In this document: positions 52,855 through 53,598 of the stretch, one piece after another
How positions within the stretch are numbered: the stretch's first letter is position 1
Layout: every line of letters begins with the position of its first letter
From: an uncultured Gammaproteobacteria bacterium
GTDB lineage: Bacteria > Patescibacteriota > Microgenomatia > Daviesbacterales > UBA10151
Direction: 5' to 3'
NCBI GenBank assembly: GCA_964524895.1
Contig: CAZGFG010000004.1
Location: forward strand, 20,469-79,759
Length of the DNA: 59,291 bases
Translations under genes and position numbers: made by a program
Notes under the pieces: model-generated
Seen by the model: the letters and a program-made list of their open reading frames with translations, nothing else
Told to the model about the DNA's origin: nothing
Database searches by the model: none

Positions 52855-53598
52855 ATGGAAAAGACAAACTCCTTTTTAACAATCCCGGTGGCTATCCTTA
52901 TAGGTTCGGTAGTTATTGGTTTATCACTTATGATTAGCAGCGGAGTGATTAAACTAGGCAGCGCCGGTTCTTACCAGGCTCCAGCTCCTACCGCTCCAAC
53001 CGGGCAGGCTCCAAGCGGCCAAGCTGTAGCCAAAACCGAAGCGGATATTATTAAAGGCTTAAAAGATTTAGCTAAAAATTTGGGATTGGACCAGAATAAG
53101 TTCAGCAGCTGTCTAGATTCAGGATCAAAAGCGGATTTGGTAAAAGCCGATTTGGACGAGGGGAGCAAAGTTGGAGTAAATGGTACTCCGGGCTTTTTTG
53201 TCAATGGCCGGACTTTAAGCGGTGCCCAACCCTATGCCCAGTTTAAAACTATCATAGATGAAGAGCTTTCAGGGAGTGCTCCGGCAAACACTCAACGCCA
53301 AAATGTCCCGGTCGGCAATTTACCGGTTTTGGGAAATCCTAATGCTCCTGTAACCATCATTGAATTTTCCGATTACCAATGTCCGTTCTGTGAAGCTTTT
53401 TTCACCCAGACCGAACCTCAAATTAAAAAAGACTATATAGATTCGGGCAAAGTGAAGTTTTATTATCGGGATTATCCTCTTTCCCAAATTCATCCTGGTG
53501 CTCAAAAAGCTGCAGAAGCGGCAAGGTGTGCCGGGGACCAAAACAAATATTGGCAATATCATGATTCGGTCTTCCAAAACCAAAAGACTCTCTTCTAA
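52855..53598 (+). CDS. membrane-anchored DsbA/BdbD-family oxidoreductase, circularly permuted
   Basis: [12 protein letters not shown] segment precedes [10 protein letters not shown] segment. Confidence 0.85.
   Translation: [247 protein letters not shown]

Follow-up and report, generated by a model that had tools for sequence, protein, structure and literature searches.

The window analysed here, a stretch of 59,291 nucleotides from contig CAZGFG010000004.1 of assembly GCA_964524895.1, belongs to a 928-kb groundwater assembly of Daviesbacteria, a lineage of the candidate phyla radiation (CPR). Between a peptidyl-tRNA hydrolase gene (pth) and a convergent gene for a Fur-family regulator lies an ATG-initiated reading frame for a membrane-anchored protein of the DsbA type, in which the half that normally ends the domain comes first and the half that normally begins it comes last (Table 1). 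The half with G110-T111-P112, which carries the cis-proline loop, precedes the half with C176-P-F-C179, the reverse of the canonical order, and the CxxC motif stands directly before helix 177-195, the place that it has at alpha1 of DsbA-like proteins. An initial annotation of the locus had described the same succession of anchor, C-terminal segment with cis-proline, linker and N-terminal part, at which the protein ends, and all the peptides that it quoted are present in the open reading frame (ORF). The evidence taken together makes it very probable that the gene encodes a functional, extracytoplasmic, membrane-tethered oxidoreductase of the DsbA/BdbD type, a single naturally permuted domain, which most likely arose by duplication and trimming and most likely has an oxidative role.

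One domain in swapped order

Profile searches returned the two halves of the domain as separate stretches of the protein. Positions 6-92 of the 165 in Pfam Thioredoxin_4 (PF13462) corresponded to residues 157-245 and positions 125-190 of the 191 in Pfam DSBA (PF01323) to residues 69-134; scored over the whole protein, in two stretches each, the profiles reached 135.6 bits (cut-off 23.2) and 64.8 bits (cut-off 25.6), respectively. A split alignment to hidden Markov models (HMMs), which the initial annotation had proposed as a check, placed the Thioredoxin_4 and DSBA halves in swapped order, and did likewise for 117 of 117 short homologues. The halves, of about 80 and 91 residues, sum to one domain of about 168 amino acids (aa) and not to two and, judged from the profiles, the swapped two-stretch match is far beyond chance. 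NCBIfam gave sub-threshold matches only; membership in its family NF041057 (Rcas_1661 family thioredoxin-like (seleno)lipoprotein) was rejected at 146.3 bits against a cut-off of 190, and the N-terminal region has no lipobox cysteine.

The closest solved relatives by sequence are C. diphtheriae DsbA (4PWO/4PWP), TsdA (7UNN) and BdbD (3EU3), with E-values of 1e-22 to 5e-25, and in the search of PDB sequences the first two matched as two stretches with the order swapped. These proteins (BdbD as 3EU3/3EU4) share with the window protein the Thioredoxin_4 domain, an N-terminal anchor, a CPxC motif and the Thr-cis-Pro loop, but they run in the canonical N-then-C order and align either as two separate sequence pieces or over 87-156 Foldseek columns, the longer alignments superposing poorly. 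The permuted protein ends with ...FQNQKTLF in the loop between helices H3 and H4, where canonical domains run on into the next helix, and its folded part opens with exactly that helix, no element being missing in comparison with two-domain relatives. The linker that joins the old termini is 15-37 aa long across lineages and retains a motif, V.VG.LP.LG, that is found ahead of canonical domains (for example at locus L042). We conclude that the permuted protein is a homologous member of the superfamily of DsbA-like oxidoreductases and a topological variant of it.

The swapped order is widely shared and conserved. Among 5710 relatives found by protein search, 270 proteins were examined, and 117 of these (the short homologues, classified with half-domain HMMs) have the C-then-N order, the rest being tandem proteins from NCNC to (NC)6, where N and C denote the normally N-terminal and C-terminal halves; a canonical order in all homologues, which the initial annotation had named as a finding that would speak against it, was therefore not what the survey returned. 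An alignment of 40 members shows no variation at CPFC, GTP, Cys86 or Cys225 and a conserved C-terminus, ...NQxx(I/L)F, and 42 of 42 permuted proteins have the CxxC motif, the [GAS]TP loop and the extra cysteine pair. Comparison with an 88%-identical relative (L151) gave a ratio of nonsynonymous to synonymous substitution rates (dN/dS) of 0.094, with 0.11 in the C-half and 0.023 in the N-half. The gene is conserved and under purifying selection, and both halves are constrained. RNA data are not usable as a sign of transcription, as only two runs contain 6% of the gene's words.

Structure prediction, also suggested by the initial annotation, gave one compact domain with the DsbA elements in permuted order. 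The model, obtained with AlphaFold2 (AF2) and the family alignment, has a mean predicted local distance difference test (pLDDT) score of 86.8, and over residues 61-247, the linker included, the score exceeds 90. Predicted for the C-half (pLDDT >90) are helices 62-75, 80-89 and 93-105, strands 113-116 and 119-122 and helix 127-139, and for the N-half strand 166-172, helix 177-195, strand 200-206 and helices 216-225 and 229-246, which together make up the full set of DsbA secondary structure, a thioredoxin fold with an inserted helical domain. Read along the model, the chain would start at H4 in the helical insert, continue through H5-H6, the Thr-cis-Pro loop, beta4-beta5 and the last helix, and then pass by way of a linker of ∼17 residues to beta1, the CPFC helix, H2-H3 and the chain end; because the chain order is swapped, the CPFC/cis-Pro active site would be built from both chain ends. 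A single DsbA-like domain, conserved at a low dN/dS and confidently modelled as one unit, bears out the true permutation that the initial annotation had inferred.

Foldseek searches of the PDB with the model returned DsbA-family structures only. The only entry aligned over the whole domain was 1UN2 (203 columns, template modelling (TM) score 0.63, target-normalised), whereas canonical BdbD and alpha-DsbA1 superposed well over just 91-94 columns. This entry is the engineered E. coli permutant cpDsbA_Q100T99, which has its termini in the H3/H4 loop of the helical insert and its old termini joined by a linker, as does the window protein. It differs in being man-made, soluble and derived from a gamma-proteobacterial DsbA with 18% identity to the window protein, which in turn is natural, membrane-anchored, of the Thioredoxin_4/BdbD type and equipped with a natural linker of 17 aa and an extra cysteine pair beside the cut. 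Given the 203-column alignment and the position of the termini, the natural breakpoint is essentially the engineered one. Random circular permutation of E. coli DsbA is the work of Hennecke, Sebbel and Glockshuber (1999), as cited in PMC3281007 and PMC13552848. A natural permutant of DsbA was not found in the literature searched, which holds engineered ones only (Hennecke et al. 1999; 1UN2).

Cys86, in H5, and Cys225, at the end of H2, make up an extra cysteine pair that is not confined to permuted proteins and also occurs in 21 of 23 canonical relatives. Two characterised proteins offer a comparison: in MtbDsbA (Rv2969c) a non-catalytic disulfide, Cys140-Cys192, links H2 and H5 (PMC3792642), and in Wolbachia alpha-DsbA1 (3F4R) a second disulfide is regulatory (PMC3839904). 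Both proteins have, like the window protein, a second cysteine pair in the helical domain, to which Cys225/Cys86 is equivalent in spacing and helices, but in these canonical-order proteins the chain closed by the disulfide is unbroken, and in the window protein the bond would span the breakpoint and connect the two chain ends. An inherited Cys225-Cys86 pair would thus flank the new termini and, if oxidised as in MtbDsbA and alpha-DsbA1, would by analogy staple the cut helical domain.

Table 1. Window positions of the permuted gene, its parts and its two neighbours (residue numbers are those of the permuted protein).
Feature	Position	Strand	Basis
Permuted DsbA-like gene, complete, 247 aa and TAA stop	52855..53598	+	ORF list and sequence; swapped two-stretch Pfam match; 100% identical cluster representative P0001
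N-terminal membrane anchor, residues 1-35, predicted helix 6-28	52855..52959	+	AF2 helix; best 19-mer mean Kyte-Doolittle 2.41
Pro/Ala/Gln-rich flexible tether, residues 36-59	52960..53031	+	pLDDT <50 at 36-56; homologues differ in length and sequence
Normally C-terminal half, residues 60-139: helices H4-H6, cis-Pro loop, beta4-beta5, last helix	53032..53271	+	DSBA profile; AF2
Cys86 codon (TGT), partner 1 of non-catalytic cysteine pair of helical domain	53110..53112	+	Invariant
G110-T111-P112, putative Thr-cis-Pro active-site loop	53182..53190	+	Invariant; precedes predicted strand 113-116
Linker from old C-terminus to old N-terminus, residues 140-156	53272..53322	+	pLDDT 91-96
Normally N-terminal half, residues 157-247: beta1, CPFC helix alpha1, beta strand, helices H2-H3	53323..53595	+	Thioredoxin_4 profile; AF2
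C176-P-F-C179 catalytic motif (TGT CCG TTC TGT)	53380..53391	+	Read from sequence; invariant
Cys225 codon (TGT), partner 2 of non-catalytic cysteine pair, end of H2	53527..53529	+	Invariant
Peptidyl-tRNA hydrolase gene (pth), upstream neighbour	52206..52805	+	Pfam Pept_tRNA_hydro, E 1e-55
Fur-family regulator gene, downstream convergent neighbour	53602..54048	-	Pfam FUR, E 7e-24

Redox partners and gene neighbourhood

All permuted proteins keep the anchor, the CxxC motif and the Thr-Pro loop, and 16 genomes that carry a permuted gene were surveyed for partners. VKOR scored above its cut-off in 6 of them (7 at E <= 0.001) and DsbB was present in 1, directly downstream of the permuted gene; 10 of the 16 have no Thioredoxin_4 gene besides the permuted one, and VKOR is present in 4 of these 10. 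On the minus strand of one contig (L024, G035:C24:5490-8149) a trxB-like gene (CANC), the permuted dsbA and a dsbB gene (CLLCWYQR) are direct neighbours in that order, the last two 2 bp apart. In B. subtilis bdbD is paired with bdbC, a gene of the dsbB type, and the row at L024 parallels this bdbDC operon, but with a permuted DsbA. In a Woesearchaeota locus, too, DsbB is encoded close to the permuted gene, at a distance of about 1 kb. The window's genome has VKOR, with which MtbDsbA works, and no DsbB. The permuted protein would oxidise secreted or membrane proteins and would be re-oxidised by the VKOR of the genome or, in some relatives, by DsbB, and from sequence and gene content an oxidative role of the DsbA/BdbD kind is rather probable.

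Some of the genomic evidence counts against this role. Half of the carrier genomes (8 of 16) have neither VKOR nor DsbB. The VKOR gene of the window's own genome (141 aa) stands on contig C2 (3754-6990; L001, 926..3240) in a tight row with a canonical DsbA gene, which it overlaps by ATGA, and a gene for a type-II NADH dehydrogenase-like flavoprotein (399 aa), and since that VKOR is operonic with another DsbA, the partner of the permuted paralogue is uncertain. The canonical protein is membrane-anchored, has 217 aa and a CPAC motif and is without the extra cysteine pair, and the row as a whole suggests a compact module for quinone-linked disulfide formation in a CPR genome. A weak CcdA-like gene (22.6 bits, under the Pfam cut-off) is also found in the window's genome, beside a copper ATPase.

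These points favour the alternative that the permuted DsbA fold is real but serves a reductive or isomerising function, fed by CcdA or thioredoxin, for example in cysteine protection or repair, as does the thioredoxin reductase gene that adjoins 8 permuted loci of four families (L012-L014, L024, L031, L036, L039 and L066). However, thioredoxin reductase recurrently adjoins the anchored DsbA gene in several Microgenomatia families, canonical-order genes included (L050, L051 and L053), and the adjacency therefore looks like shared synteny. The closest solved relatives (BdbD, MdbA-type DsbA and alpha-DsbA1) are moreover oxidases, and a reductive function would have to accommodate the two loci with DsbB beside or near the permuted gene, as well as the four genomes in which VKOR accompanies a permuted gene as the only DsbA. 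We consider a reductive or isomerising role unlikely, though it is the main rival on function.

Elsewhere on contig C2 of the window's genome, at about 7000-10500 (L070), lie genes for a DUF1573-like secreted protein, a Cys-rich protein of 309 aa, the CcdA/DsbD-like membrane protein mentioned above, with PCC and ACC motifs, and a copper-type P-type ATPase with an HMA domain. This cluster may be a metal-linked thiol-reducing module.

In the window the permuted dsbA and the Fur-family gene end 3 bp apart (53596-53604), a spacing that leaves no room for a terminator between the convergent genes. At L151 the order is pth, permuted dsbA, ZIP and lytB, the Fur gene and a PaaX-like module being missing between dsbA and ZIP; the variable segment is therefore the whole Fur-PaaX block (53602-54700) and not the PaaX module alone. 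In Daviesbacteria relatives (L006-L011 and L019) the stop codon of the permuted dsbA is followed at 1-10 nt by the start of a DUF3105 gene; this linkage is absent in the window, and DUF3105 also adjoins canonical-order DsbA genes (L059, L061 and L068). A universal functional neighbour of the permuted gene was not found: TrxB, DUF3105 and pth are each restricted to certain lineages and are found by canonical-order DsbA genes too.

Distribution and origin of the permuted order

In the class, 401 genomes were sampled, and about 55, from at least 15 GTDB families, have a collinear C-then-N gene of 240-300 aa; all 45 loci checked with half-domain HMMs proved permuted. The gene is patchy within the window's own family (just 8 of about 30 genomes), and elsewhere in the phylum 4 genomes of 2 families carry it. 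Among the matches listed in a GTDB pattern scan, permuted genes occurred in genomes labelled Kerfeldbacteria, Levyibacteriota and Saccharibacteria, in a GC-rich metagenome-assembled genome (MAG) labelled Dehalococcoidia and in a MAG labelled Woesearchaeota, the anchor of the last protein matching that of a canonical-order Pacearchaeota protein; several MAG labels in the scan (for example 'uncultured Gammaproteobacteria') look unreliable and were not used. The search of representative proteins added one further permuted cluster (P0174), but long tandem arrays, with summed scores above those of single-domain proteins, crowded its results, and it does not amount to a census.

Tandem arrays among the listed scan matches were mostly from Myxococcota. 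More broadly, tandem Thioredoxin_4 proteins of 600-1200 aa with up to six domains are common (P0121-P0270; L076, L084, L087-L091 and others), mostly in genomes labelled Myxococcota, and one of them (P0232) contains identical copies inside one protein, a mark of recent internal duplication.

The initial annotation had proposed tandem duplication followed by trimming as the source of the permuted order. Tandem proteins from (NC)2 to (NC)6 (P0100, P0111, P0119 and the Myxococcota arrays) belong to the same domain family as the window protein, but consist of complete domains in canonical order where the window protein has one domain's worth. Three of them, the anchored N1-C1-N2-C2 proteins P0100, P0111 and P0119, are 50-54% identical to the window protein across C1-linker-N2. 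In half-domain scores the N-half of the window protein sides with N2 (128-143 bits) over N1 (83-94 bits), the C-half being ambiguous, and in a tree of N-halves the permuted clade is monophyletic (support 96/83) and stands apart from the N1 clade of the two-domain proteins closest to it, the one point on which this tree was informative.

When 82 domains were put into N+C order, the resulting tree required 11 changes of order, at least 5 of which are forced by strongly supported branches; one clade (support 100/99), recognisable by an insertion in each half (QGGD and FFIGKS...), unites 8 canonical and 4 permuted proteins. The anchors are lineage-specific, with a median local score of 79 between permuted and canonical proteins of the same family and of 28 between permuted proteins of different families. 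The best match of the window anchor (score 105) is a canonical-order DsbA from a sister genus (L057), whose gene occupies the same slot downstream of pth; pth lies directly upstream of the permuted genes at L006-L011 and L151 and of canonical DsbA genes of sister genera at L056 and L057.

The breakpoint is not everywhere the same. In family f18 (4 genomes of 3 genera), a sister clade, helix H4 stands at the C-terminus (...SNGRSFDK..L..LA..LGIK*), where AF2 models it at pLDDT 90-93, and the folded part begins with H5. The collinear match to canonical DsbA structures is correspondingly longer (122-132 columns versus 91-94), and the breakpoint of this family is one helix later than that of the window protein.

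The ancestor was most likely a membrane-anchored tandem N-C-N-C protein. An in-frame deletion would have removed its first N-half and a truncation its last C-half, the lineage's own anchor being kept; it is the retention of the anchor that requires the deletion to have been in frame. Comparable events have probably taken place several times in Patescibacteria and beyond, always within H3-H5 of the helical insert. Differing breakpoints, recurrent events and abundant tandem arrays fit duplication followed by differential trimming. Several observations pull the other way. The C-half tree cannot separate descent from C1 from descent from C2, and chimeras of diverged domains, if there are any among the permuted proteins, could have distorted the tree of re-ordered halves. 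A clean CNC or NCN intermediate was not found among the homologues surveyed, as the proteins with a CNC.. or ..NCN score turned out to be fragments from contig ends or to carry a degenerate first domain, and a relic of the trimmed C-half after the stop codon was not found either, HMM matches through the stop proving spurious when the downstream frames were read. The survey of homologues that the initial annotation had recommended thus produced the shared order and the arrays in abundance, but not the intermediate, and the proposed origin is upheld by the arrays, the C1-linker-N2 identity, the split from N1 and the second breakpoint, although the route is not proven. We infer that an origin by duplication and trimming is well supported.

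The missing intermediate and relic, together with the unsettled origin of the C-half, also fit a history in which the gene split and its parts re-fused in swapped order, or in which a foreign half-domain was inserted. Against such a history stand the abundant tandem arrays, a linker that retains the segment preceding canonical domains and clade breakpoints one helix apart, as differential trimming predicts; separate half-genes were not seen in any of 69 loci. We regard fission and re-fusion as improbable.

The single intact domain that duplication and trimming would leave has also to be weighed against an arrangement in which the C-half of one chain completes the N-half of another, as a domain-swapped dimer or oligomer. 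Complementation between chains is possible for circular permutants and half-domains, the AF2 model is of a monomer only and the linker varies in length, but the modelled monomer is compact, its linker is well ordered and it superposes on the engineered permutant 1UN2 over the whole domain, and we think a domain swap quite improbable. The architecture further equals the middle of an NCNC protein, as it would if the gene were a functionless pseudogene, a decaying C1 and N2 remnant of a two-domain gene; that reading was rejected on the dN/dS values of both halves and is made highly implausible by catalytic motifs invariant over lineages at just 30-65% identity, by the status of the gene as sole Thioredoxin_4 gene in 10 of 16 carrier genomes and by the confident single-domain model. 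An assembly artefact, in which a collapsed or mis-joined tandem DsbA repeat created a false C-then-N frame, was named by the initial annotation as a possible undoing of its reading and is conceivable in principle in a family that does contain tandem arrays, but it is effectively refuted by separately assembled Logan contigs from 4 runs of 2 groundwater studies, which span the gene without joints and show 0 differences from the window, by the same order in >117 proteins from many samples and at the 45 checked genome loci, and by the conserved stop directly after ...NQxx(I/L)F.

A possible permutation hotspot in the helical insert

Only a limited number of protein families are known to contain natural circular permutants, and for DsbA, a textbook folding catalyst, the literature searched describes laboratory permutants alone. 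We tentatively raise the possibility, which we hold to be less than even, that the H3-H5 region of the DsbA insert is a natural permutation hotspot, opened independently at least 5 times (in several lineages of Patescibacteria, one of Dehalococcoidia and DPANN archaea) at no fewer than 2 breakpoints, with the permuted form as sole DsbA in many of these minimal genomes, with tandem arrays as the raw material, with a pre-existing H2-H5 disulfide that makes the cut tolerable, and with the swap selected and not neutral. Nature has in any case repeatedly made, at two neighbouring breakpoints, a cut found viable by random permutation of E. coli DsbA. If the hotspot reading is true, the membrane tether moves from the edge of the thioredoxin fold (beta1) to the helical insert, and the shift would alter how the active site faces the membrane, the re-oxidant or substrates emerging from the translocon.

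The finding also has consequences for how such proteins are recognised. To annotation pipelines the domain appears as two partial hits, and the product is labelled only as a 'thioredoxin domain-containing protein', a shortcoming that a permuted profile would mend. With raw material, in the form of tandem arrays, and end products in the same lineages, the family offers a rare system in which a route by duplication and trimming can be traced and tested. It is likewise a natural experiment on how chain connectivity and the position of the tether bear on oxidative folding in organisms with minimal genomes.

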